A stretch of DNA of 64,000 nucleotides, taken from Bacteroidia bacterium. GTDB lineage: Bacteria; Bacteroidota; Bacteroidia; UBA7662. Shown piece by piece: positions 4,501 through 64,000 of the stretch (within the stretch, counting starts at the first letter, position 1; each line of letters starts with the position of its first letter). The translations under genes and the position numbers were made by a program. The stretch is from NCBI GenBank assembly GCA_049431025.1, contig JBMTCP010000008.1, positions 7,105 to 71,104 of the forward strand. The letters are read 5' to 3'. A model generated the notes under the pieces. The model saw only the letters and a list, made by a program, of their open reading frames with translations, had not been told where the DNA came from and searched no databases.

Positions 4501-4501
4501 A

Positions 4502-5851
4502 ATGGAAGCCCTGGAAACGACCTGGACCCTTTGGGACTACCTCCAACAGCCTTATTTTCAAAGGGCCCTTGGGGCAGCGATTATGGCCGGCACCGCCTGC
4601 GCCCTTTTGGGTTGTTTTATGGTGTTACGAAACATGGCCCTGATTGGCGATGCGCTTTCGCACGCCATACTGCCGGGGGTTGTGGTGGGTTTTATGATTG
4701 CAGGTCATAGTTTACTTGCCTTTTTTGTTGGTTCCGTTATGGCCGGTTTGTTCGCGGCAGTGCTGATTGCCTGGTTGCAAAACCGGGGTGGGGCTCGAAA
4801 CGACGCCGCTATCGGAATTGTTTTTTCGGCAATGTTCGCTTTGGGTGTTATCGGGATTTCTACACTTACCCGGCGTGAAGGGGTACACCTGGACATGAAA
4901 GATTTTTTGTTTGGTAATGTGTTAGGAATTGGTCAAGATGATTTGGTTTTGTCTGCCCTGGTTTTGGTTTTCGATGTCTTTTGTATTGGGGTGTTTTTGC
5001 CTTATTTCTTTGCCTCCGCATTTCAGGCCGATGTTGCCCAAACCATGGGAATCCCTACCCGTATTCTGCATTATTTCACCGTTTGGATGCTTAGCCTGAC
5101 GGTGGTGGCTTCCTTGCAATCGGTGGGCGTCATTTTGGTCGTATCCATGCTTATCGTACCTGCTTCCACGGCTTTGATCATGAGCCATAAACTACAAAAA
5201 GTCCTGCTTTGGGCTATGGGCTTAGGGGCCTTTAGTTCGGCCAGCGGGCTTATGGCCTCGGTCTATTGGGATACCGCGCCCGGTCCGGCGATCACCCTTA
5301 CCGCCACATTCCTGTACCTTATCGTTTTGGTGGGCCATCCCCAAAGAGGATTATGGCCCCAAAAGATGCGTAAAGCCCTTCGAATCTGGCAACATTGGGC
5401 CGAAGATTTTATCAAAGCCCTGCATCGTAACCCGGATTATAACAACAAACAAATCCAAGACGAATTGGGATGGAGCCCAAGAATCCTTTACCTCTCTCTG
5501 CTTTATTGCCGTAACAAAGGATGGATTCTTACCGATTCCAAGAACAAATCGCAATCGGCCCTCACCCCAACCGGGCTCCAGAAAGCCTTGAATATGGTTA
5601 GGGCCCACCGGCTCTGGGAAAGTTATTTGGCCCAAAAGCAAGGCTTTGAACCGCATCAATTGCATTGGTTGGCCGAGAAGGATGAACACGTGCTACCCCA
5701 AGAGTTTTTGGATCAAATCGACCAACGCCTGGGATTCCCCGATTTGGATCCCCACGGCTCACCCATACCACGAAACGAAGCCCATCCAAGCCCAAAGCCA
5801 CCATCAGCTCCAACGGGCTTCGACCCATCAGCCGCTCGTAAAGGCCTCTAA
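4502..5851 (+). CDS. fused ABC-3 family metal permease (ZnuB/MntC/TroC-like) - DtxR/MntR-family metalloregulator (HTH plus metal-binding dimerisation domain)
   Basis: The N-terminal roughly 280 aa is a multi-TM permease (LGCFMVLRNMALIGDALSHAILPGVV). The C-terminal roughly 170 aa has a winged helix (NKQIQDELGWSPRILYLSLLYCRNKGWIL...LTPTG) and a DtxR-like VRAHRLWESYL...EKDEHVLPQEFLDQIDQRLGFPDLDPHGSPIP. The ATG at 4502 follows the upstream stop directly. Confidence 0.75.
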   Translation: MEALETTWTLWDYLQQPYFQRALGAAIMAGTACALLGCFMVLRNMALIGDALSHAILPGVVVGFMIAGHSLLAFFVGSVMAGLFAAVLIAWLQNRGGARNDAAIGIVFSAMFALGVIGISTLTRREGVHLDMKDFLFGNVLGIGQDDLVLSALVLVFDVFCIGVFLPYFFASAFQADVAQTMGIPTRILHYFTVWMLSLTVVASLQSVGVILVVSMLIVPASTALIMSHKLQKVLLWAMGLGAFSSASGLMASVYWDTAPGPAITLTATFLYLIVLVGHPQRGLWPQKMRKALRIWQHWAEDFIKALHRNPDYNNKQIQDELGWSPRILYLSLLYCRNKGWILTDSKNKSQSALTPTGLQKALNMVRAHRLWESYLAQKQGFEPHQLHWLAEKDEHVLPQEFLDQIDQRLGFPDLDPHGSPIPRNEAHPSPKPPSAPTGFDPSAARKGL

Positions 5852-11895: not shown

Positions 11896-14800
11896 CGGGA
11901 GGGTGGCGATTGGCGTAGTTTGCTTTGATACCTCAAATTGCGTTCGCGGTAATAAGCATTTAAATCAGGAGCGGCGGGCTTGTAAGCGCCCTGTTTATTG
12001 ATGTTAAGTCGCTGAATGGGGTCCAAGGACGACCCGGTTCTGTCCTGGTTTTGTTGTTTGGCGCTTTCGGAAGAACGACTTTGTTCCATTTCTCGCTCCT
12101 GTTCTGCCTTCTCAGCCTCCAACATTCGGCTCAAAATTTGTTGCTGCCTTTGCAGGCTTTCCATGCTAATCTTTTTGTTGACCAGCTCCTTTTCGGTTTG
12201 TTCCATTTGTTTGACGGCTTCCTCGATGGCTTGGCGGCCGGGCTGGTTCCCCCCTTCTTTGTTAAGCTCCTTGAGGATTTTTTCCATTTCGCGCCTTATG
12301 GCTTCTTGCTGGGCGACCATTTGCGCAAACTCTTTACCTCCTTCGCCCCTGGAAGGCTTGTTCCCGGCCTTGGATTCGCCCTGGCCTTGACCCTTGCTTT
12401 TGCCCTGCTGTTCCTGCATTTGATTGCTCAGTTTCTTTTGCATGCTGCGCAAGCGAGACATTCCGGAGCCCCCGGGTTTGGGTTTTTTGCATTGCTGATT
12501 CCCGGGCATTTGGCTGGCCTTCTGTTCGGTCGCTTGCTGCAACAATTCCGACAAAAGGTTGGCAAGGTTGTTGGCCGCCGTCATGGTGTATTGCTGGCGG
12601 CCTTTGGCCCCGTTGACATCCCTTTGGTTCATCCGCTCCAGGGTGGCCTTGTAGTGTTCTTCGAGTTCCTTGATTTCTTTTTGGACAGGGGCCTGTATTT
12701 GCCAGACGCGACGCGATAAAGCTTCCAGGCTGTCTTTCATGGGATCCAATTGCTCACGCAAACCAAATTGCTCACGAGATAATTGCACAAAAACCTGGGA
12801 ATAGTTGGTTTGGTCTTTGAGGCGGTCCATGATGGCCTCCTGATCAAAGGAAAACTTGAGAACACGACCCAAGAGACGGCGCATGGCCCGGAGATCTTCC
12901 TCCAGTTCTTCCATTTCCTGCTGAGCCAATTGCTTTTGCATTTGGTTACTCATTTGGCGCATTCCGGCTGCCGCTTTTTGCTGTTTTTGTGCGGATTTGC
13001 TTCGGTTTTGTTGGTTTTTGGCTTGATTTTCGGCCTCTTCCTGATCCTTGGTCACTTCTTCGCCTTGGTCTTCCAGACCATCCAGGTCTTTGGGGCGCTC
13101 AAGCTCTTGGTTCTTTTCCTTGGTTTTCTCCCAGTCCTTGAGAAGGTCTTTGGTTTCTTGACGCAACTTTTCTTGTTCTTCGGCTACTTTATTCAGGTCC
13201 TGTTCGGGGTTTTTGGTTTTCTGCGCCAAATCTTCTTGCTGCCGGGCCAGTTCCTCCAATTTCTTCATGGCTTTTTCTATACGATCCTCAACCTCTAACT
13301 CCTTGAAGAACTGCAACATACGGTCCAATTCTTTGCTAACTCTGCTCTGGTCTTTCTCGAGTTTTTCGAGTTGTTTCTGGATTTCGGGTTTGGCCGCTTC
13401 GTCTCGTAACATTTTTTCTATGCTACGCAGCATTTCCTTCATTTCTTCGTTGAGTAATCTCTCCGCCATTTCTTTGATTTTCTCCTGTTTTTCAAGGATT
13501 TGAACGGGGGTTTCAGCGGATGATTTTTGTTGTTGTAACTCTAGTTTTTTTTGAATTTCTTCGACCTCTTCGATGGCCTGACGTTGTTCGTTCCTTAATT
13601 TTTCCAGGTCTTTGCGGTCTTCAAAGCCCCACTCCTTTTGCTGTTTAAGACGATCAGATAATTTACGGGTCTGCTGTTGAGCCTCTTGCATGTCCTTGTC
13701 TGCTTTTTGAAAACCCGTAGACGTTTCACGCGATAAGGCTTCAAGGGCCTGGGCTTTTTCACGCTCAGAGGATAAGCGCCATTCAAACAGGGCGGAGCGA
13801 CTTCGTTTATAGCCAGCCGGCTGATCGTTATCCTCCACTTCCAATCCGTACCGAAGGCCGTCCCCGGGGTTTAAACCCATTTTGAGGGGGTCAACAACTT
13901 CCTCAAAACGCCTTTCGGCAATCCCCCCCTCCCAAGCAAAGGGCAAAAATTGCTCTTTGGAATCAAAGTCCTTTTGACCAGCGCGCTTGATCCAATAAAC
14001 CCAATGCAAACTTCGGAGGCCGTAATCATCCCATGCCCTACCCGAGACCAAAGGGGGCTCCAGAGGATCCGCAGACTCCTTAACCTCAACCTCAAGACCC
14101 GGAGGCATGTCTTCAACCAAATCAACACCAAAAGCCAACGTATCCGCTTCTTGGCCCTGGTTGCTGTACAAAAGCAGTTTGTACGCGCTGCTAAGGGCTG
14201 GAATCCAACGCAGCGAATAGCGCTGCCCCGTTGAAGCATCGTTTTCGCGTACTCCAAAACGAGGAGCGGTCGCTTCCGGGGTCAAGAGGCCCAAGCCGTT
14301 GCTGTGCTTGCTATCCACAACAAAACGCAAAGACGTACCCCTTGGAACCTGAACATCTCCGCTATTCAATAGACGTTCAGCCGCTTTACCGGTATGAGGA
14401 GGGTATTCTATCCACAAAGCCAATTGCAACAGCGTGGGTTTATGAAAAACCGTCAATTGTTCTTCGGACGAAGAAAACCCGGAAGCGCTAAACCAAAACG
14501 ATCCGGAACGCCGAACATTGGGAACTTTAAAAGCAAAACGACCCGGAGAAATTCGGCGCATTTTGTAGGCCTGCTGGCCCCAATGAACCAATGCTTCCTG
14601 AGGAATTTCTCTTCCGGAAATTTCAAGCTGAACATCCCATTCTGAACCCGCCTCAACGCGCAATGGCGTTTGATCCCAATCAAACTCAAAGGGGGCGGGA
14701 AGCGTGTAACCTACATTGTAACGAAGTATTCGACCGGTTCCAACCGACATCACATCAGGAACCCAAAACCACAAAAACAACCATAAAGCCGCTAAAGGAA

Positions 14801-57172: not shown

Positions 57173-58044
57173 AAACGGAACACGGTTTTGAACGGGTTAT
57201 GGTGGCCGGCGCCGGCACCATGGGTCAGGGCATAGCCCAACTCTGCATCGAAGCCGGTTTGCCCACCCTGCTCTTTGACGTCAACGCCGCCATGCTGACC
57301 AAAGCCAAGGCCGGAATACAGGCCGTTTGGGATGCCCGGGTTGCCAAAGGCCGTTTGGATGCGGAGCAGGTCCGGCTATGGTCCTCCCAACTCAGCTTTA
57401 GCGACCGCAGCGAGGACCTTAGGGGGGATTTGCTCATCGAGGCGGTGGTGGAATCCGCTCCTGTCAAAAGAACCCTCTTTGCGACGGTCGAAGCCCAGAA
57501 CGGCCCCCAAACCGTTTTGGCCAGCAATACCTCGTCCATTCCCATGGAACAACTTGCTCAGGGACTGGCCAGGCCCGAGCGGGTGGTTGGCCTGCACTTT
57601 TTTAACCCGGCACCGGTCATGAAACTCGTGGAGGTGATTCGCGGACCCGGGACTTCGGCCGAGGTTGCCGAGAAGGTGGATGCCCTGGCCCAAACCATGG
57701 GCAAAATCGTGGTTCATGCCCAAGACTCCCCCGGTTTTATTGTGAACCGGGTCGCGAGGCCGTATTACGCCGAAAGCCTCCGTATCGTGGGCGAAGGCGG
57801 ACTAACACCCGTTGAGGTGGACCGTCTCATGGAATCGGTGGGTTTTCGGATGGGCCCGTTCCGACTCATGGACCTGATCGGCGTGGACACCAATTTGGCC
57901 GTAACCACCTCCGTTTATGAGGGCTTGGGTCAACCGGCCCGCTTTGAACCCCACCCTCTCCAGCAGAACAAAGTCGCTCAAGGCCATAACGGACGCAAAA
58001 GCGGTCGTGGCTTTTACGATTATACCCTCCCCAACCCCTTATGA
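57169..58044 (+). CDS. 3-hydroxyacyl-CoA (3-hydroxybutyryl-CoA) dehydrogenase
   Basis: NAD-binding VMVAGAGTMGQGIAQ; conserved HFFNPAP and NRV motifs; 291 aa. Confidence 0.85.
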   Translation: MKTEHGFERVMVAGAGTMGQGIAQLCIEAGLPTLLFDVNAAMLTKAKAGIQAVWDARVAKGRLDAEQVRLWSSQLSFSDRSEDLRGDLLIEAVVESAPVKRTLFATVEAQNGPQTVLASNTSSIPMEQLAQGLARPERVVGLHFFNPAPVMKLVEVIRGPGTSAEVAEKVDALAQTMGKIVVHAQDSPGFIVNRVARPYYAESLRIVGEGGLTPVEVDRLMESVGFRMGPFRLMDLIGVDTNLAVTTSVYEGLGQPARFEPHPLQQNKVAQGHNGRKSGRGFYDYTLPNPL

Positions 58045-58487
58045 GCCTTTCTCTACGCCTGGCTGGACTCTTTTGGGTCATGGCTACCCTCTTGACCCCC
58101 CTTCAGGGATGCCGAGGGCGGGTTCCCGCCGACCAAATCCCCCAGGTCCCGGTGGATTTTAGCCTAAACCTCCAGCTTCCCACCTATAATCACCTGCAAT
58201 TGGTGGGTCAATACGCCTATATCGACGCCGGTTACCGGGGAATTCTTCTGTACCGTTCGGGTTTGGACCGGCTCCAGGCCTTTGATCGTGCCTGCACCTA
58301 TGCTCCCAGTCAAACCTGCCACAAGGTTGCGGTGGTGGACTCCCTGATGCTGGCCCAATGCGAATGCTGCGAATCCCGCTTTGGTCTCCAGGACGGGCAG
58401 CCCTTTCGAGGCCCCGCCGGCTGGCCCTTACGCTCCTACCGGGTCTTTTTTGATGAAGTCAGTGGCTCGGTGAGGATTACCAATTAA
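58041..58487 (+). CDS. lipoprotein with degenerate Rieske-like [2Fe-2S] domain
   Basis: Lipobox LTPLQGC. The C-terminal fold pattern (GILLYRSG...AFDRACTYAPSQTCHKV...AQCECCESRFGLQDGQPFRGPAGWPLRSYRV) parallels the Rieske CxH...CxxHGSxF...GPA arrangement, but with Cys/Tyr in place of His ligands. Confidence 0.5.
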   Translation: MSLSLRLAGLFWVMATLLTPLQGCRGRVPADQIPQVPVDFSLNLQLPTYNHLQLVGQYAYIDAGYRGILLYRSGLDRLQAFDRACTYAPSQTCHKVAVVDSLMLAQCECCESRFGLQDGQPFRGPAGWPLRSYRVFFDEVSGSVRITN

Positions 58488-58563: not shown

Positions 58564-58824
58564 ATGAAAATCAGCCAGAATATCGCCATCTCCGAGAACG
58601 GTTTTATGTTCAACCCCGCCACCGGGGATTCCTTTAGCACCAACGAAACGGGCAAGGAGATTATCCGACTTCTTCAGGAAGGCAAAAACCAAGCCCAAAT
58701 CCTGGATGCCCTGGAAAGTCATTTTGCGACCGACCGCGCTTCCCTCGAAAAGGACCTCGCTGATTTTTTGTACATGCTGGGCAATTACCGCATCCTGGAC
58801 GTGAACATCGGCCAGACCCGCTAA
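58564..58824 (+). CDS. PqqD-family protein (RiPP recognition element-like peptide chaperone)
   Basis: 86 aa. FNPATGDSFSTNETGKEIIRLL...EKDLADFLYMLGNYRIL follows the PqqD/RRE winged-helix pattern. Confidence 0.7.
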   Translation: MKISQNIAISENGFMFNPATGDSFSTNETGKEIIRLLQEGKNQAQILDALESHFATDRASLEKDLADFLYMLGNYRILDVNIGQTR

Positions 58825-58837
58825 TTCCATAGGTTTT

Positions 58838-59911
58838 ATGAATAGTCCCCAACCCAACGCCTCCGGGCGCATTCCTTGCACCGTGGCGGTGAGCGGCCTC
58901 AACAACGTGGACTCTCCCGGTCCGGGCATGCCCGTTATTCGGGCCTTGCGCCTCAGCGAGCGTTACGATTTTCGTGTGGTGGGCTTGAGTTACGATAGCC
59001 TGGAGCCCGGTCTGTACATGCACGATTTGGTGGACAAATCCTACCAAATACCCTTGCCTTCCGCCGGTACCGGGGCCCTCATGGAACGCCTGCGTTACCT
59101 GCAATCCGTGGAATCCATCGATGTTTTGATTCCCAATTTTGACGCGGAACTCCACAACTTTATTCGCCTGGCGCCCGCTTTGGAAGCCGAGTTGGGCATA
59201 AGGACCTTTTTGCCCGGTTTACAGGAATTTGATGCCCGTCACAAAGCAGTGCTTTTTGAATACGGCCAAAAGCACGGGGTCAAAGTCCCTGTTGCTAACA
59301 CCGTTTACACCATCCATGAATTTCACCGCGCCCTCGAGACTTCGGTTTACCCTTTGGTGGTCAAAGGCAAATACTACGACGCTCAAATTGCCCACAGCGC
59401 GGACGAAGCCCTGAGTGCTTTTTACAAGATCTCGGCCAAATGGGGTTTGCCGGTTTTGGTCCAGCAATACGTCCGGGGTAACGAAGTGAACGTGACCGCA
59501 CTGGGGGATGGAAAAGGGCGTTGCATCGGGGCTGTTCCCATGCGCAAACTGTACATCACCGACAAGGGCAAAGCCTGGGCCGGGGTCTCCATCGAAGACC
59601 ATGAACTCATGCGCCTATCGGCGGACTTGATTGCTTCTGCGCGCTGGAAAGGCCCCTGCGAATTGGAATACATGCGCACCGAAGACGGCGAATACTACCT
59701 GATGGAAATGAACCCCCGTTTTCCGGCCTGGGTTTACTTGGCTGTTGGTTGCGGTCAAAACCACCCCGAAGCCTTGGTGGATATGGCCCTGGGCCACCAA
59801 GCACCGGTTATGGATACCTACGAAATCGGCAAAATGTTTATCCGCTATTCCCAGGACCTGGTGGTCCCCATGCAGGAATTCGAAAAAATATCCACCCTCG
59901 GCGAACTCTAA
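58838..59911 (+). CDS. ATP-grasp domain carboxylate-amine ligase
   Basis: ATP-grasp core (LVVKGKYYDA, LVQQYVRGNEVNV, EYYLMEMNPRF Mg/ATP motif); 357 aa. Confidence 0.75.
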   Translation: MNSPQPNASGRIPCTVAVSGLNNVDSPGPGMPVIRALRLSERYDFRVVGLSYDSLEPGLYMHDLVDKSYQIPLPSAGTGALMERLRYLQSVESIDVLIPNFDAELHNFIRLAPALEAELGIRTFLPGLQEFDARHKAVLFEYGQKHGVKVPVANTVYTIHEFHRALETSVYPLVVKGKYYDAQIAHSADEALSAFYKISAKWGLPVLVQQYVRGNEVNVTALGDGKGRCIGAVPMRKLYITDKGKAWAGVSIEDHELMRLSADLIASARWKGPCELEYMRTEDGEYYLMEMNPRFPAWVYLAVGCGQNHPEALVDMALGHQAPVMDTYEIGKMFIRYSQDLVVPMQEFEKISTLGEL

Positions 59912-59984
59912 ATATTCCACTAAGCCTTAGTCCTCGACGTAACCTTCGACATCTTTTCAGACTTTCCAATACGACCTACGCACC

Positions 59985-61349
59985 ATGAGCAAAAAAACCT
60001 ACGAGCGCCCTTATTTGCGCAAGCTTAACGCCGGCCTCGGTAACAAATTCGGAACACGGAATTCCCAGCTTCCGGTTACCGAAATTGATGGGGTACCGGT
60101 GGCCTCCATCATGGAAAAATACGGCTCCCCGTGTTTTGTGTTATCCGAACAAACCATACGCCAAACCTACCGCAATGCGGTCCGGGCTTTTGGTACCCGT
60201 TACCCCAAAGTCCAAATGGCCTGGTCTTACAAAACCAATTACCTCAACGCCGTTTGCCGGATTTTTCACGAAGAAGGATCCTGGGCCGAAGTGGTGAGCA
60301 TTTTTGAATACCGCAAAGCCCTGGCCAACGGGGTTCCCGGTCACCAAATTCTTTTTAACGGCCCCGATAAATCCGCCGAGGACCTGCTTATTGCCGTCCA
60401 AAACGGATCCCTCATCCACATGGACCATCTGGATGAACTGTACCAGCTTTCCGAAATTCTGGCCGCCAAGGACCTCAAGGCCCGGGTCGCCCTCCGTATC
60501 AACATGGATACCGGGGTGTACCCGCTCTGGGATCGCTTTGGGTTCAATTACGAAAACGGATCCGCCTGGACCGCCATTACCAAAGTCATGGCCCAACCGC
60601 GCATGCAATTGGTGGGCCTCCATTGCCATATCGGAACCTACATGCTAAGCGCACAGGCCTATGCTGTTGCGGCCAACAAATTATGCGACCTGGCTTTGGA
60701 AATCCGCAACCAATACCAACACCGCATCGAATACCTGGACCTTGGCGGCGGGTTTGCTTCGGGAAATACCCTCAAAGGATCGTATTTGCAGGGCTCGGAT
60801 ATAATTCCTACCATGGATGATTATGCCGAAGCCATATCGGGAGCAATTCTTCAGCATCCTTTTGGGATGAGCGGCGAATTGCCCACCCTCTTTTTGGAAT
60901 CCGGTCGGGCCTTGATTGACGATGCCGGTTATTTGCTGGGTACGGTATTGGCGCTCAAACGCTTGGGCGATGGACGACGGGCAACCATTATGGATTTTGG
61001 GGTTAATTTATTGTTCACCTCGTTCTGGTACGAACACCGAATTTCTCCCGCCCAGGATTATTCCAGCCATCACGAAGACATGGTTTTGTACGGACCTTTG
61101 TGCATGAACATTGATGTGGTTCGCGAAAATGTTTCTCTGCCCTTGCTCCAAAAGGGCGACCGTGTGGTGGTGCATCGGGTTGGCGCGTACAACATGACCC
61201 AGTGGATGCAGTTTATCCAAATGCGCCCCAACGTAGTTTTGATCGATTCGCGCGGTGAAGTTCATTTGATCCGCCGACGGGAAGACGTTCAAACCCTTAA
61301 CGATCAGGAACTTATTCCGACCTATCTGGAGGGAAACCAAGGGTCGTAA
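59985..61349 (+). CDS. PLP-dependent decarboxylase, fold type III (Orn/DAP/Arg decarboxylase family)
   Basis: PLP-lysine context WSYKTNY, LDLGGGF, ESGRALID and GPLC motifs as in DAP/ornithine/carboxynorspermidine decarboxylases; 454 aa. Confidence 0.75.
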   Translation: MSKKTYERPYLRKLNAGLGNKFGTRNSQLPVTEIDGVPVASIMEKYGSPCFVLSEQTIRQTYRNAVRAFGTRYPKVQMAWSYKTNYLNAVCRIFHEEGSWAEVVSIFEYRKALANGVPGHQILFNGPDKSAEDLLIAVQNGSLIHMDHLDELYQLSEILAAKDLKARVALRINMDTGVYPLWDRFGFNYENGSAWTAITKVMAQPRMQLVGLHCHIGTYMLSAQAYAVAANKLCDLALEIRNQYQHRIEYLDLGGGFASGNTLKGSYLQGSDIIPTMDDYAEAISGAILQHPFGMSGELPTLFLESGRALIDDAGYLLGTVLALKRLGDGRRATIMDFGVNLLFTSFWYEHRISPAQDYSSHHEDMVLYGPLCMNIDVVRENVSLPLLQKGDRVVVHRVGAYNMTQWMQFIQMRPNVVLIDSRGEVHLIRRREDVQTLNDQELIPTYLEGNQGS

Positions 61350-61350
61350 C

Positions 61351-63543
61351 ATGGCCCGGCCAACTGGACTACGCTCATTTTGGAACGGCCCCGTGAAGGG
61401 GGTTCTCAACAGCTATGCCCAGTTGTTTTTTGCCCTACATCCTTTTTTGGGATTCTTGGCCCTGGGGGTGAGTTTTATGGACCCCTTGCTGGGGTTCTGC
61501 GGGCTGTTATCGGTGGTCCTGGTGCAGCTGATGGGACGTTTGACGGGCCAAAACCGCGAACTTCTGCAGGAAGGGATGTACGGCTTCAATGCGTTGCTTT
61601 TGGGTTTGGCCATGGCCCATCGATACCGCGTTGATCCCCCCATGCTTTTGGTGTTACTGGCCGGTTTGGTTTTGTTGCTGACCCTGATTGTTTGGTGGAA
61701 TCGGCATTTGGGACGCTACGGCCTGCCCTACCTTACCTTGCCTTTTGTCCTGACCTACTGGGTTTTGATGGAAGGTTCGGATAGCTTGGCCGCGGTAACG
61801 CTGCGCTACCCCGGCACGACAGGGACATCGGGTCAAGCGGAATTGTTGGCTTCGGCGGGCCTGGAAATAGCGGCCGCCGATCCCTTTTGGAAAAGTTTTT
61901 TGCGAACCCTGGGTTCCATATATTTTCAGGACTCGGTGCTTGCCGGTTTGCTATTGGCGATGGGTTTGCTGATCCAAAGCCGTTTGTCGTTTTTGTTGGC
62001 GGTGGGCGGATATGCCCTGGCTTTTGGTTTGTTTCAATCCATGGGCGCATCGACCGTTCCCTTAACTGATTTTTTGGTGGGTAGTAATTTTGTGTTTATG
62101 GCCATCGCCTTGGGGGGATTTTATCTTGTGCCCTCGTTGGGTACGCTGGGCCTGGTGGCGCTTTTGACCCCGGTTTTGGCCGTTCTTATGTTTGCGTTTG
62201 AAGGTTGGTTAGCCCCCTGGGACTTGCCCCCTTTTACCTTGGCCTTTAGTGGGTTAACGCTGTTGGTTTTGTATTTTTTGCAGTCGTCTCCTCCAATCCG
62301 CGGGCTAGTTCCGGTTGCCCTGCAGTATTATTCTCCCGAAAAAACGCTGTACAAGCACGCCGTCAATGCTCAGCGTTTGGCCAACCTGTATACCCCGCGA
62401 TTTCATTTGCCCTTTTGGGGAACCTGGACCGTGACCCAGGGCTACCAAGGTCAACACACCCACCTGGGGGATTGGTCCAAGGCTTTGGATTTTGAAATCA
62501 CGGACCAGGAGGGCCGTTACGCCAGCGGGGATGGCCAGCGTCTGGAAGATTACTATTGTTATAACAAACCCGTAGTCGCTCCGCTCGAAGGCACGGTGGT
62601 CGCCTTGACCAACCATGTACCGGATAACCCCATAGGCGCGGTGGATTTGGAGCAAAACTGGGGCAATTCCCTGGTTCTGCAGCACACCAACGGCTTGTAC
62701 ACCCAATACTCTCATTTGCGCCAAGACAGCTTCAAGGTGGCTTTGGGCCAATGGGTGGTTCGAGGACAGGTCATGGCTACCTGTGGTAATTCCGGCCGTT
62801 CGCCCCGTCCGCATTTGCATTTTCAGGTGCAGCATAGCCCCGAAATCGGCGCTCGTACCCTTGCTCATCCCATGGCCTATTACCGCTTGGAGGAGGGTGC
62901 GGATTCAGTTTTGCAGCGCTGGTCCGTCCCAAGCGAGGGTCAGCGGGTGAGTTCGGTGGATGCGGCACCGGACCTTGTATCGGCTTTTGCATGGAAGCCC
63001 GGTCAGGTTTTGCGGATGCAGTCCGAGGAACGCCCGGACTGGATGGTGGATTGGAAGGTAGGAACGGATGCTTACAACCGAACCTATTTGTATTGTTCCG
63101 CTACGCGTTCTACGATGTGGTATGTCAACGATGGGGTTATGTTTTGGGCCTATGATTTTGAGGGTTCGCGTTCGTCTTTGCTTTACCGTTTTTATGGGAG
63201 CGTTTATCGCTTATCCTTAGTTCAGGATGCCGGGATGGTGGACGATGTTATGCCCCTGATTCATTTTAGTCGTCCTTTGTTACGGATAATACAGGATCTT
63301 GTTGCCCCTTTGTTTCTTTTTTACAGCGTTCACTACCGCTCCGAGGTCTTGAAGAAGGGCTCGGGTCCAACCGCCGATGAGGGGGCTTTGCACAGCTCGG
63401 TATCTTCCAAGGTGCTTGGTCGCCCGGTACGGCAAATCGATTTTGAACTCTATACCCGGGATGGTTCTCTCCATCGATGGGTACAACAGCCTCCCAAGGG
63501 TTCCAACCAGCCTCCAACAGCCTACCGATGCAGTTGGAGTTAA
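61351..63543 (+). CDS. fusion protein: urea-transporter-like polytopic membrane domain + peptidase M23 (LytM) domain + C-terminal domain of unknown function
   Basis: The N-terminal roughly 330 aa is UT-like (YAQLFF...GMYGFNALLLGLAM). The M23 motifs HTHLGD, NSGRSPRPHLHFQV and HxH lie at about 62380-62850. 730 aa in total. Confidence 0.6.
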   Translation: MARPTGLRSFWNGPVKGVLNSYAQLFFALHPFLGFLALGVSFMDPLLGFCGLLSVVLVQLMGRLTGQNRELLQEGMYGFNALLLGLAMAHRYRVDPPMLLVLLAGLVLLLTLIVWWNRHLGRYGLPYLTLPFVLTYWVLMEGSDSLAAVTLRYPGTTGTSGQAELLASAGLEIAAADPFWKSFLRTLGSIYFQDSVLAGLLLAMGLLIQSRLSFLLAVGGYALAFGLFQSMGASTVPLTDFLVGSNFVFMAIALGGFYLVPSLGTLGLVALLTPVLAVLMFAFEGWLAPWDLPPFTLAFSGLTLLVLYFLQSSPPIRGLVPVALQYYSPEKTLYKHAVNAQRLANLYTPRFHLPFWGTWTVTQGYQGQHTHLGDWSKALDFEITDQEGRYASGDGQRLEDYYCYNKPVVAPLEGTVVALTNHVPDNPIGAVDLEQNWGNSLVLQHTNGLYTQYSHLRQDSFKVALGQWVVRGQVMATCGNSGRSPRPHLHFQVQHSPEIGARTLAHPMAYYRLEEGADSVLQRWSVPSEGQRVSSVDAAPDLVSAFAWKPGQVLRMQSEERPDWMVDWKVGTDAYNRTYLYCSATRSTMWYVNDGVMFWAYDFEGSRSSLLYRFYGSVYRLSLVQDAGMVDDVMPLIHFSRPLLRIIQDLVAPLFLFYSVHYRSEVLKKGSGPTADEGALHSSVSSKVLGRPVRQIDFELYTRDGSLHRWVQQPPKGSNQPPTAYRCSWS

Positions 63544-64000
63544 TCCACCCGGTTCGGCTTCCAGCATGGCTTTTGGGGGGCTTATGGCTGGTTTTTGGCG
63601 CCTATTCGGCTCAGGCCCAGCCAGGACGGGTGGATAGTTTGACCCGTTATGCCTTGGCCTACGGGGAATACGTGGACCTTATTCAGGCCGGTCGTCAGGC
63701 CATCAAGGAAGGTTGGGTAACGGCCGAATTGCATCGACGCATGGCTTTGGCGTATCGAATGTTACAAGACCATGAGCGCGCCGTTGACCATTGGCGCACT
63801 GCTTCCCGCATGGTTCCCGGTTCGGCACTTTTGGCCGGGGAGTATCGACAGGAATTGTGGACTTGTCGGCGTTGGGACGAATGGCGTTGGGCCACGATGC
63901 AAAACGAGGCGGATGATTTAGGCGTTTTGGCCTTGGATTATGCGGTGGTGAATGCGGGCCTTTTGTACCCACCGGGTTCAGGTTCCTTTCGGGATGAGGT
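63528..64000 (+). CDS. secreted TPR-like repeat protein (partial, runs off window end)
   Basis: Not in the supplied ORF track because there is no stop before the window end. An ATG at 63528 gives MQLELIHPVRLPAWLLGGLWLVFGAYSAQAQ (a signal peptide), followed by TPR-like helical repeats. Confidence 0.5.
   Translation, partial: MQLELIHPVRLPAWLLGGLWLVFGAYSAQAQPGRVDSLTRYALAYGEYVDLIQAGRQAIKEGWVTAELHRRMALAYRMLQDHERAVDHWRTASRMVPGSALLAGEYRQELWTCRRWDEWRWATMQNEADDLGVLALDYAVVNAGLLYPPGSGSFRDE

Follow-up and report, generated by a model that had tools for sequence, protein, structure and literature searches.

The locus considered here raises the question of what is made, or handled, by a run of co-directional genes to which no pathway has been assigned. 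The stretch analysed, referred to throughout as the window, comprises 64,000 nt of contig JBMTCP010000008.1 from the Bacteroidia bacterium assembly GCA_049431025.1 (positions 7,105 to 71,104), and the genes in question lie on its forward strand from position 58,564 onward. An earlier note, made from the letters of the window and without database searches, had described four co-directional open reading frames (ORFs) separated by gaps of 13, 73 and 1 nt, and had called their products a PqqD-type RiPP recognition element (RRE; RiPP, ribosomally synthesised and post-translationally modified peptide), an ATP-grasp ligase bearing the motif EMNPRF, a pyridoxal phosphate (PLP)-dependent decarboxylase, and a fusion of a urea transporter-like (UT) membrane domain with an M23 peptidase. 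Profile searches bear out the arrangement, the domain calls and the EMNPRF motif alike. The answer at which we arrive is that these four genes belong to a dedicated six-gene operon of the Bacteroidota and of the Ignavibacteriota/Kapaibacteria, in which, as judged from sequence, the pockets of the RRE and a leader-like motif at the N-terminus of the decarboxylase fit each other.

Within the window, gene 1 (58564..58824, + strand, 86 aa) encodes the PqqD-family RRE, gene 2 (58838..59911, +, 357 aa) the ATP-grasp ligase ('carbamoyl-phosphate-synthase-like'), gene 3 (59985..61349, +, 454 aa) a fold-type III PLP decarboxylase, and gene 4 (61351..63543, +, 730 aa) the fusion protein, in which the UT and M23 domains are followed by a third, C-terminal domain. 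Gene 5 opens with an ATG at 63528, such that its start and the stop of gene 4 overlap, and its product bears an N-terminal signal peptide; only the 5' part of this gene is included (63528..64000, +), as the end of the window cuts it. Gene 6, which encodes a periplasmic tetratricopeptide repeat (TPR) protein of 205-236 aa, lies beyond the window and is found at 13704-14414 of locus L085, where the full gene 5 occupies 12178-13680.

A scan that took one genome per species found relatives of the ATP-grasp protein in at least 564 genomes. Hidden Markov models of the six proteins were mapped onto the best 80 of these loci, all of them in metagenome-assembled genomes (MAGs), with about ±8 kb per genome covered around each locus. 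The order RRE, ATP-grasp, decarboxylase, fusion, gene 5, gene 6 is kept in essentially all 80: the ATP-grasp gene is adjoined by the PqqD gene wherever there is upstream room (75/75 loci), the decarboxylase comes next in each of the 59 loci with at least 5.7 kb of downstream sequence, and the UT/M23 fusion and the TPR gene were each found in 58 of those 59. The median distances between genes 1-4 across the mapped loci are -8, 26 and 14 nt, and little or no variation is seen at catalytic and pocket positions (68-83 sequences per protein), while the neighbours outside the cassette vary from locus to locus. Three distant ATP-grasp homologues (62-64% identical), from MAGs labelled Flavobacteriia, Chitinophagales and Thermonemataceae, display the identical six-gene order within mutually unrelated flanks. 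A fusion protein 100% identical to that of the window is encoded on a 90-kb contig of another Bacteroidia MAG, GCA_049460595.1, with genes 5 and 6 directly 3' of it and then a convergent metK. As such, the unassigned co-occurring cassette that the earlier note had proposed is genuine, with near-universal synteny in the mapped loci; its genes recur together and are not lysA, ddl or rimK, findings which all favour a dedicated system.

The submitter labels of the loci range over Flavobacteriales, Chitinophagales, Cyclobacteriaceae, Thermonemataceae, Sphingobacteriia, Saprospiraceae, Bacteroidales, Paludibacteraceae and Ignavibacteria, and Candidatus Kapaibacterium is the label borne by one fusion-protein homologue. 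Almost all of the loci and homologues covered stem from uncultured Bacteroidota. The close homologues of the ATP-grasp and fusion proteins (more than 300 listed) are all MAG or metagenome entries, with no cultured-strain name among the matches listed, and a homologue search seeded with a Flavobacterium-labelled sequence again returned MAG and metagenome entries with generic names only. Several MAG records carry implausible labels (Bifidobacterium, Glaciecola, Chryseobacterium gleum). Public annotations of the proteins are likewise generic, for example 'carbamoyl-phosphate synthase large subunit', 'urea transporter' or 'MepM/NlpD'. A search of the full-text literature returned no description of such a cassette, and neither the RRE-Finder paper nor the 2025 structure-based survey of RREs mentions a cluster of this kind. 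No Rfam match was found in the window. An anti-phage defence system was considered and rejected, as the PADLOC models gave 0 matches for any of the six proteins and the ATP-grasp protein was not found on viral contigs.

The smallest of the six proteins provides the first clue to the logic of the system. The gene 1 product matches the Pfam family PqqD (PF05402, E 4e-12), and the profile of its family, when compared with solved structures, finds the lasso-peptide B1 proteins TbiB1 (5v1u, E 2.5e-12), TfuB1 (6jx3, 2e-6) and PbaB1 (9x90, 3.5e-4), with PqqD itself far weaker at 0.04. The assignment of this 86-aa protein to the PqqD/RRE type was therefore well made: it is a true RRE, the closest solved relatives of which are the lasso B1 proteins TbiB1 and TfuB1. 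Its N-terminal β-region and third helix are nearly invariant (NIAxSxxGFxFNPxxGDSFSxN … EKDxxDF). Its C-terminus is not conserved, which speaks against a role as a LysW-like carrier.

Discrete RREs of the lasso type bind a leader motif of the form [Y/W]xxPx[L/V/I/F/A] (PMC10368454, PMC13381572). In these complexes an Asp on helix 3 (D70 of LppB; Gln in the Trp-preferring PbaB1) hydrogen-bonds the Tyr hydroxyl, an Asn at the end of β3 (N33 of LppB; Gly in PbaB1) fixes the kink at the Pro, a Phe (F74/F83) splits two hydrophobic pockets, and several aliphatic residues line the pockets (PMC13381572). The cassette RRE aligns with PbaB1 free of gaps, such that profile position p corresponds to PbaB1 residue p+15, and the contacts could thus be read directly from 75 sequences. 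Position 27, which maps to LppB N33 and PbaB1 G42, is Asn in 75/75, and position 64 (LppB D70, PbaB1 Q79) is Asp in 75/75; position 68 (LppB F74, PbaB1 F83) is Phe in 73/75. Among the positions that map to further PbaB1 residues, 72 (L87) is Leu in 72/75 and 33 (I48) is Ile in 68/75, position 54 (Y69) is Tyr or Phe, and position 77 (L92) is Leu, Ile or Val. Given that conserved residues stand at the published leader contacts, the Tyr-specifying Asn and Asp among them, the RRE is by its sequence built for a Tyr-type YxxPxΦ peptide.

A peptide of just this description is found on the neighbouring enzyme. The decarboxylase begins with a family-specific N-terminal extension (residues 1-23; 59985..60053, +) that carries the lasso-leader-like motif Y6-E-R-P9-x-[I/L/V]11 (60000-60017, +) within the consensus x-K-x-x-Y-E-R-P-x-[I/L/V]-x-x-L-N-x-G-x-M-N-K-[F/Y]-G. 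Residues Y6, E7, P9, N15, N20, K21 and G23 are each present in 76/76 sequences, and position 11 is Ile in 67, Leu in 7 and Val in 2. Homology to lysA, FigC and diaminopimelate (DAP) decarboxylase (DAPDC) begins only near residues 24-34, the extension being unmatched in the FigC, lysA and FslC models, and a phmmer search of the PDB with the 31-residue tail returned 0 matches. Across the six proteins there are three conserved [YW]xxPxΦ motifs. Two of them fall within folded cores, at a helix-strand junction of the modelled ATP-grasp protein and in a β-strand within the M23 domain, and only that of the decarboxylase extension lies outside one. The residue-level comparison thus shows RRE pockets and a decarboxylase motif that appear to fit each other. 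That the RRE actually binds this leader-like tail is a step beyond such a fit, and one to which we would assign slightly better than even odds.

The earlier note had seen no convincing precursor ORF in the immediate flanks, and this lack extends well beyond the window, to about 77 loci. Inside the cassette the gaps are too short to hold a precursor ORF, and the few enlarged gaps contain unrelated material. No small ORF recurs within or beside the cassette on either strand in some 77-82 loci, with or without YxxPxΦ, and no ORF recurs in the 250 nt 5' of the PqqD gene in 77 loci. Clustering of 4,795 small ORFs (18-130 aa) from the flanks produced only antisense artefacts inside neighbouring genes, and when 38,336 ORFs were searched by motif for an N-terminal YxxPxΦ leader, no recurrent candidate emerged. 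The intergenic small ORFs across the 64-kb window likewise yielded no precursor candidates.

The enzymes of the cassette can be placed with differing precision. The gene 2 product is an ATP-grasp protein (PF15632) that matches PRK12767-like models, all far below their cutoffs. The comparison figures obtained for it are 25 with 2pn1 (a structural-genomics entry annotated as carbamoylphosphate synthase large subunit), 24 with the L-amino-acid ligase BL00235, 22.6 with PylC, 21 with BacD, and 22-23 with biotin carboxylase-type enzymes, PurD, PurT and PurK, as against 15-17 with LysX, RimK and PGM1 and 10-12 with the graspetide macrocyclases. Since the figures are higher for small-molecule ligases than for the macrocyclases, we regard the protein as a small-molecule-type ligase and not a graspetide enzyme, in a comparison that cannot separate amide ligases from bicarbonate-activating enzymes. 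Of the two analogies that had been offered for the ATP-grasp protein alone, the likeness to L-amino-acid ligases thus stands and that to graspetide enzymes does not. A graspetide (microviridin-type) pathway was rejected in view of an ATP-grasp protein that is not of the MdnC/PsnB/CdnC macrocyclase type and of the lack of a precursor gene, and a LysW/LysX amino-group carrier system was rejected as there is neither a small carrier with an EDWGE-type acidic tail nor an ATP-grasp protein of the RimK/LysX type. One further feature of the ligase is its C-terminal tail, …EFEKISTxGEL-COOH (residues 347-357; 59876..59908, +), in which the last ten positions, the very last included, show 61-99% conservation across 83 sequences. 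The AlphaFold2 (AF2) model has a confidence score (pLDDT) below 50 at residues 352-357, and the tail is probably disordered. Conceivably it serves for docking, provides a carrier or substrate carboxylate built into the enzyme, or is cut by the M23 domain.

Profile searches find both the N and the C domain of the Orn/DAP/Arg decarboxylases in the gene 3 product, for which the closest solved relative is FigC (7kh2, E 2e-62), with the best DAPDC at 2e-45 and BtrK (2j66/7ru7) at about 6e-26. The PLP-binding Lys83 and the HCHIGT, GGG and ESGR motifs are conserved. An alignment to the M. jannaschii DAPDC shows that the Cys-Glu-Ser of that enzyme ('CES'), a loop which we take to contact the distal centre of DAP, is Cys-Met-Asn in 76/76 sequences, and the residues of FigC that contact citrate, R387 and N389, are replaced by Q406 and M408. 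Identity with LysA was rejected on the replaced loop and on a score of 228 bits for the lysA equivalog TIGR01048, below its cutoff of 297.9. Membership among the FigC/FslC N-citrylornithine decarboxylases was rejected on the replaced citrate contacts and on 216 bits for NF041039 against a cutoff of 500, with FigC still the closest relative. FigC has been grouped with SbnH, AcsE, MccE, BtrK, DAPDC and D-ODC (Li et al. 2020, PMC7857480), and, DAPDC and D-ODC apart, the enzymes of the clade are considered more likely to serve in specialised metabolism; the substrates of FigC, SbnH, AcsE, MccE and BtrK are amino-acid moieties carried on a larger scaffold (PMC7857480). The resemblance to BtrK that had been noticed from the sequence is borne out to the extent that the enzyme sides with these conjugate decarboxylases, FigC and BtrK, and not with LysA.

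The fusion protein encoded by gene 4 contains the Pfam domains UT (PF03253, residues 17-309, E 3e-46) and Peptidase_M23 (PF01551, residues 405-495), and its AF2 model is of good quality (pLDDT 89, global score pTM 0.81). The channel domain (residues 17-312; 61399..62286, +) has the ten-helix UT fold with its two pore half-motifs, is 25% identical to dvUT and superposes upon it with a TM-score of 0.85. The pore motifs are mostly retained (Q24, F79-N80, N246, F192-Q193, S/T129, S/T296), position 245 being Phe in 33 sequences and Ser in 22, with Ser in the window; the score for the urea-transporter equivalog TIGR03441 is 109 bits against a cutoff of 274.6. In the M23 (LytM) metallopeptidase domain (residues ~345-500; 62383..62850, +), H371, D380, H455, H488 and H490 are present in 68/68 sequences, the first metal motif being Hx8D and not HxxxD. 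The β-rich C-terminal domain (residues 505-730; 62863..63540, +) is unique to the fusion: it matches no Pfam family, its structural matches are all weak, a search of 1.84 billion representative proteins finds it in 225, and in full-length matches it is always at the same position in proteins of about 730 aa. Both the three-part fusion and this domain were found only in this architecture.

The side of the membrane on which the peptidase lies bears directly upon its possible substrates. No transmembrane helix follows the UT domain, and the linker after the last helix averages 6.9 Lys plus Arg, as compared with 1.0 Lys plus Arg and 4.1 Asp plus Glu for the central loop. In characterised urea transporters both termini are cytoplasmic, and together with this positive-inside bias of charge this leads us to predict that the M23 and C-terminal domains face the cytoplasm. 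Such a location argues against cleavage of the cell wall, and the suggestion that the peptidase acts upon stem peptides of the wall is accordingly unlikely; a periplasmic wall hydrolase was rejected on the same ground. To our knowledge, the known M23 enzymes all act outside the cytoplasmic membrane, and no characterised UT-fold channel is fused to a cytoplasm-facing M23 peptidase.

The remaining two genes encode envelope proteins. In the three distant neighbourhoods the gene 5 product has 430-450 aa and no Pfam domains, and gene 6 there encodes a TPR protein of about 205 aa. The orthologues of gene 5 consist of a signal peptide, about 100 aa of TPRs and about 310 aa with a dominant period-2 hydrophobicity; this C-terminal part is high in Gly, Asn, Ser and Tyr and ends in …LKWxF, with Phe as the last residue in 14/17. 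A comparison of the gene 5 profile with the PDB gave matches to the TPRs only. On account of its signal peptide, period-2 hydrophobicity and C-terminal Phe, gene 5 probably encodes an outer-membrane β-barrel preceded by TPRs. Gene 6 encodes a signal peptide followed by TPR repeats. Tandem pairs of gene 6 occur in loci L013, L015, L039 and L079, and in one sub-lineage (L034, L036, L050, L063, L080, L083) a copy of the gene 6 TPR protein is encoded some 3.5 kb 5' of the PqqD gene; several of these sub-lineage loci have a sensor kinase of about 735 aa as the immediate upstream neighbour, and L080 has a downstream copy of gene 6 as well.

Taken as a whole, these features are consistent with a model, to which we assign a probability of about 0.4, in which an RRE-docked decarboxylase and a ligase produce an amine-terminated amide, with an envelope half to serve it. 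There would be no separate precursor; we infer a physical docking in which the lasso-B1-type RRE binds the YxxPxΦ extension at the N-terminus of the decarboxylase instead. The RRE gene is presumably translationally coupled to that of the ATP-grasp protein, the two overlapping by a median of 8 nt in the other loci, and for this reason it is reasonable to postulate that the RRE tethers the decarboxylase to the ligase. The ligase, which most resembles the L-amino-acid ligases and PylC, would link the side chain of an amino acid to the carboxylate or amine of a partner, and the decarboxylase would then strip the α-carboxylate from the tethered amino acid to leave an amine-terminated amide. This presumed chemistry of ligation followed by decarboxylation is modelled on FigA/FigC, BtrJ/BtrK and MccE. 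In a variant of the scheme, the RRE would present the segment that follows the motif (N15, N20, K21, G23) to the ligase or to the peptidase, and the tail of the decarboxylase would itself be modified or clipped. The UT-type channel, presumably a trimer, would bear the M23 zinc peptidase, with its catalytic residues intact, and the β-domain upon its cytoplasmic face, where the two at the mouth of the channel may process or gate something. Gene 6, with its periplasmic TPRs, and gene 5, with its TPRs and putative β-barrel, would form a path by which the product, or else a precursor, crosses the envelope, the direction of transport being likewise presumptive.

Several considerations weigh against this model. 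The motif YxxPxΦ is short, and we estimate (rather than compute) a chance of about 1% that it would occur accidentally within 23 residues; its invariance could also stem from a structural role within the decarboxylase. A peptide bearing YxxPxΦ may be encoded in trans elsewhere in the genome, beyond the ±8 kb or so covered around each locus. The UT pore in characterised urea transporters is narrow, and a ligated and decarboxylated conjugate may be too large or too charged for it, in which case something else may pass through the channel, or the channel may act purely as a scaffold. The evidence assigns no role to the M23 domain, the first metal motif of which is oddly spaced. Last, locus L033 has genes 1-3 without genes 4-6 nearby, and three loci (L037, L039, L064) carry insertions at the junction of genes 3 and 4; from these exceptions the cassette can be seen to have two halves, genes 1-3 and genes 4-6, which may be separable modules. 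The insertion in L037 (10934-13300) encodes a large secreted leucine-rich-repeat protein whose C-terminus resembles, by eye, a type IX sorting domain.

The most serious of the other explanations is that the cassette is a conventional RiPP pathway with a remote precursor, in which the RRE binds a YxxPxΦ leader and the ATP-grasp protein adds an amino acid to the precursor by an isopeptide bond. A diamino or acidic residue would be added and then decarboxylated to an amine, the M23 domain would be the leader peptidase, and the channel, TPR and outer-membrane proteins would export the product. The RRE of the cassette is a bona fide leader-binding module of the B1 type, a discrete protein with the pockets for a Tyr-type YxxPxΦ as in the lasso pathways, and the further lasso parts have their counterparts here as well: for the B1 RRE, the B2 peptidase, the C lactam synthetase and the D exporter, the cassette offers an RRE, a peptidase, an ATP-dependent former of amides and an exit through the membrane. 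Furthermore, RRE-dependent precursors may lie far from their enzymes and may be as long as 200 aa (PMC13381572). The individual parts, however, differ from those of a lasso pathway. The cassette has no precursor gene that could be found nearby, and its leader-like motif is on an enzyme; its peptidase is of the M23 type and its ligase an ATP-grasp protein, whereas lasso B2 is a transglutaminase-like Cys protease and lasso C a homologue of Asn synthetase; and in place of an ABC transporter there is a UT channel, to which the cassette adds a PLP decarboxylase and two envelope TPR proteins. Neither the transglutaminase-like B2 peptidase nor the Asn-synthetase-like cyclase is among the six conserved genes. 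On balance we consider a remote precursor unlikely, while keeping it foremost among the rivals to the docked-decarboxylase model.

The docked-decarboxylase model has its own precedents, from each of which the cassette departs. It shares with the rhizoferrin pair FigA/FigC (FslA/FslC), and with SbnH and AcsE, a FigC-like decarboxylase and the proposed sequence of side-chain ligation and then α-decarboxylation. Unlike FigA/FigC, its ligase is an ATP-grasp protein and not an IucA/IucC synthetase of the NRPS-independent siderophore (NIS) type, and the cassette contains no exporter of the major facilitator superfamily (MFS); its decarboxylase, unlike FigC, has the additional leader-like extension as well as Gln and Met at the citrate-contact positions. 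With the butirosin proteins BtrJ, BtrK and BtrI it has in common an ATP-grasp protein, a decarboxylase of the DAPDC clade for a tethered amino acid, and a small accessory protein of about 86 aa. The small protein of the cassette is an RRE winged-helix protein without any match to a phosphopantetheine (PP)-binding or acyl carrier protein (ACP) domain in Pfam or NCBIfam, and as such a BtrI-type acyl-carrier tether was rejected. The analogy to a BtrJ/BtrK module drawn in the earlier note therefore survives in its pairing of an ATP-grasp protein with a DAPDC-clade enzyme, and fails in so far as it would require a carrier. The L-amino-acid ligases and PylC (BL00235, BacD, RizA, PylC) differ from the cassette ATP-grasp protein in sequence, with only 13-18% identity, and we know of none that works with an RRE or with a coupled decarboxylase. 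The urea transporters dvUT, UT-A and UT-B and the M23 peptidases LytM, lysostaphin, ShyA and DipM lack the combination seen here, as the cassette fuses both and adds a third domain. Gene 5 recalls PgaA, BcsC, AlgK/AlgE and Slam in its signal peptide, N-terminal TPRs and β-barrel-like C-terminal region, and gene 6 in its periplasmic TPRs; unlike those proteins, the pair shows no detectable homology past the TPRs, the barrel being presumed, and the conserved unit contains no glycosyltransferase or synthase of the kind that accompanies PgaA/BcsC/AlgKE-type export.

Two further explanations fare considerably worse, and both are improbable. The first is a cytoplasmic pathway that edits or recycles the peptides of peptidoglycan, whereby the M23 domain would cleave stem peptides or muropeptides, the decarboxylase would act on the free D-centre of peptide-bound meso-DAP, a Ddl- or Asl-like ATP-grasp protein would add a residue, and the outer-membrane and TPR proteins would link the system to the wall. 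Against this stand the predicted cytoplasmic position of the M23 domain, a decarboxylase that lacks the Cys-Glu-Ser of DAPDC and scores under the lysA cutoff, and a conserved unit with no Mur, Mpl or AmpG-type genes; moreover, the RRE and the urea-type channel would be left without a role. The second is the uptake and assimilation of a small solute, for instance urea or some small amide, imported through the outer-membrane protein and the UT channel and then activated, either itself or as bicarbonate, by a ligase resembling carbamoyl-phosphate synthase (CPS), with the remaining enzymes processing the adduct. The UT fold with most of its pore residues, the likeness of the ATP-grasp protein in sequence and fold to CPS, biotin carboxylase, PurK and urea carboxylase domains, and a distribution mostly in environmental metagenomes and MAGs are all compatible with such a function. 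However, a biotin carrier, a carboxyltransferase, a urease and an allophanate hydrolase are all missing from the conserved unit, a small neutral solute does not call for a TPR/β-barrel pair, and the RRE, decarboxylase and M23 domain would be left idle. That housekeeping genes (lysA, ddl/rimK, a urea transporter, a wall hydrolase) lie side by side by chance, as the purely generic public annotation of each protein might suggest, can be set aside in the face of near-universal synteny, overlapping genes and varying flanks, of NCBIfam equivalog scores far under their cutoffs in every case, and of a UT/M23/C-terminal-domain fusion restricted to this architecture.

Having weighed these alternatives against the model of a docked decarboxylase, we turn to the limits of the operon and to its surroundings. 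Upstream of the cassette, the 4-nt overlaps that had been reported between pheS, the 3-hydroxyacyl-CoA dehydrogenase gene (hbd) and a 148-aa ORF are present. A possible extension of the operon into pheS and hbd was not borne out, as the flanking genes differ between genomes and these two therefore fall outside the unit; the boundary instead moves downstream, with the addition of two conserved genes. The 148-aa ORF (58041-58487), which had been called Rieske-like, has no match in Pfam or NCBIfam. It is Cys-rich with a CxxC…CxCC pattern, its N-terminus is likely signal- or lipoprotein-like, and it adjoins the cassette in the closest relatives only (L005, L007, L008), and as such it also stands outside the conserved unit. 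Elsewhere in the window, an 850-nt stretch (4501-5350) is devoid of long ORFs and matches nothing in Rfam at gathering thresholds; such ORFs as it has, on both strands, are short and of low quality.

Some neighbours recur often enough to be informative as to regulation. In about 20 loci the upstream same-strand neighbour encodes a protein of about 200 aa that is AraC-like by eye, with a degenerate HMA-like N-terminus, and in about 19 loci a LytTR response regulator adjoins the cassette, sometimes with a histidine kinase. Pairs of a LytS-type histidine kinase (PF06580) and a LytTR regulator were located at 3685-5477 of L002, 5978-7671 of L004 and 10528-12329 of L033. With LytS/LytTR or AraC-like neighbours recurring in this way, the cassette would seem to be under regulation and not constitutive. 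Scans for σ70 promoters and for terminators gave results below the expectation from shuffled sequence and were uninformative; the Bacteroidetes -7 element TAnnTTTG was found 5' of the PqqD gene in 16/77 loci, the window having none. In a further group of loci (L020, L023, L024, L027, L029, L030) a gene for a protein of about 394 aa, by eye an amidohydrolase of the M20 family resembling N-acyl-amino-acid hydrolases, lies upstream in the opposite orientation, some 140 nt (median) from the cassette, and may encode a lineage-specific accessory that acts on an amide product.

RRE domains serve as a class-independent marker in genome mining for RiPPs, and they are assumed to bind a separate precursor peptide. 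We would suggest here, tentatively and at rather less than even odds, that an RRE has been co-opted for the assembly of enzymes and coupled to a novel UT/M23 fusion and a TPR/β-barrel route, toward an undescribed amine-amide or modified protein; there is a substantial chance that the RRE as adaptor, together with the union of channel and peptidase, makes the cassette categorically new. Given the invariance of its pockets and the occurrence of a relative of its ATP-grasp protein in the genomes of at least 564 species, it is probable that the cassette produces or handles a single, specific molecule that matters generally to the organisms that carry it. If the docking is as we propose, a phylum-wide RRE that finds its ligand on a partner enzyme would call for 'orphan' RREs to be read differently, and natural pairs of leader and RRE would serve as modules for the docking of proteins.

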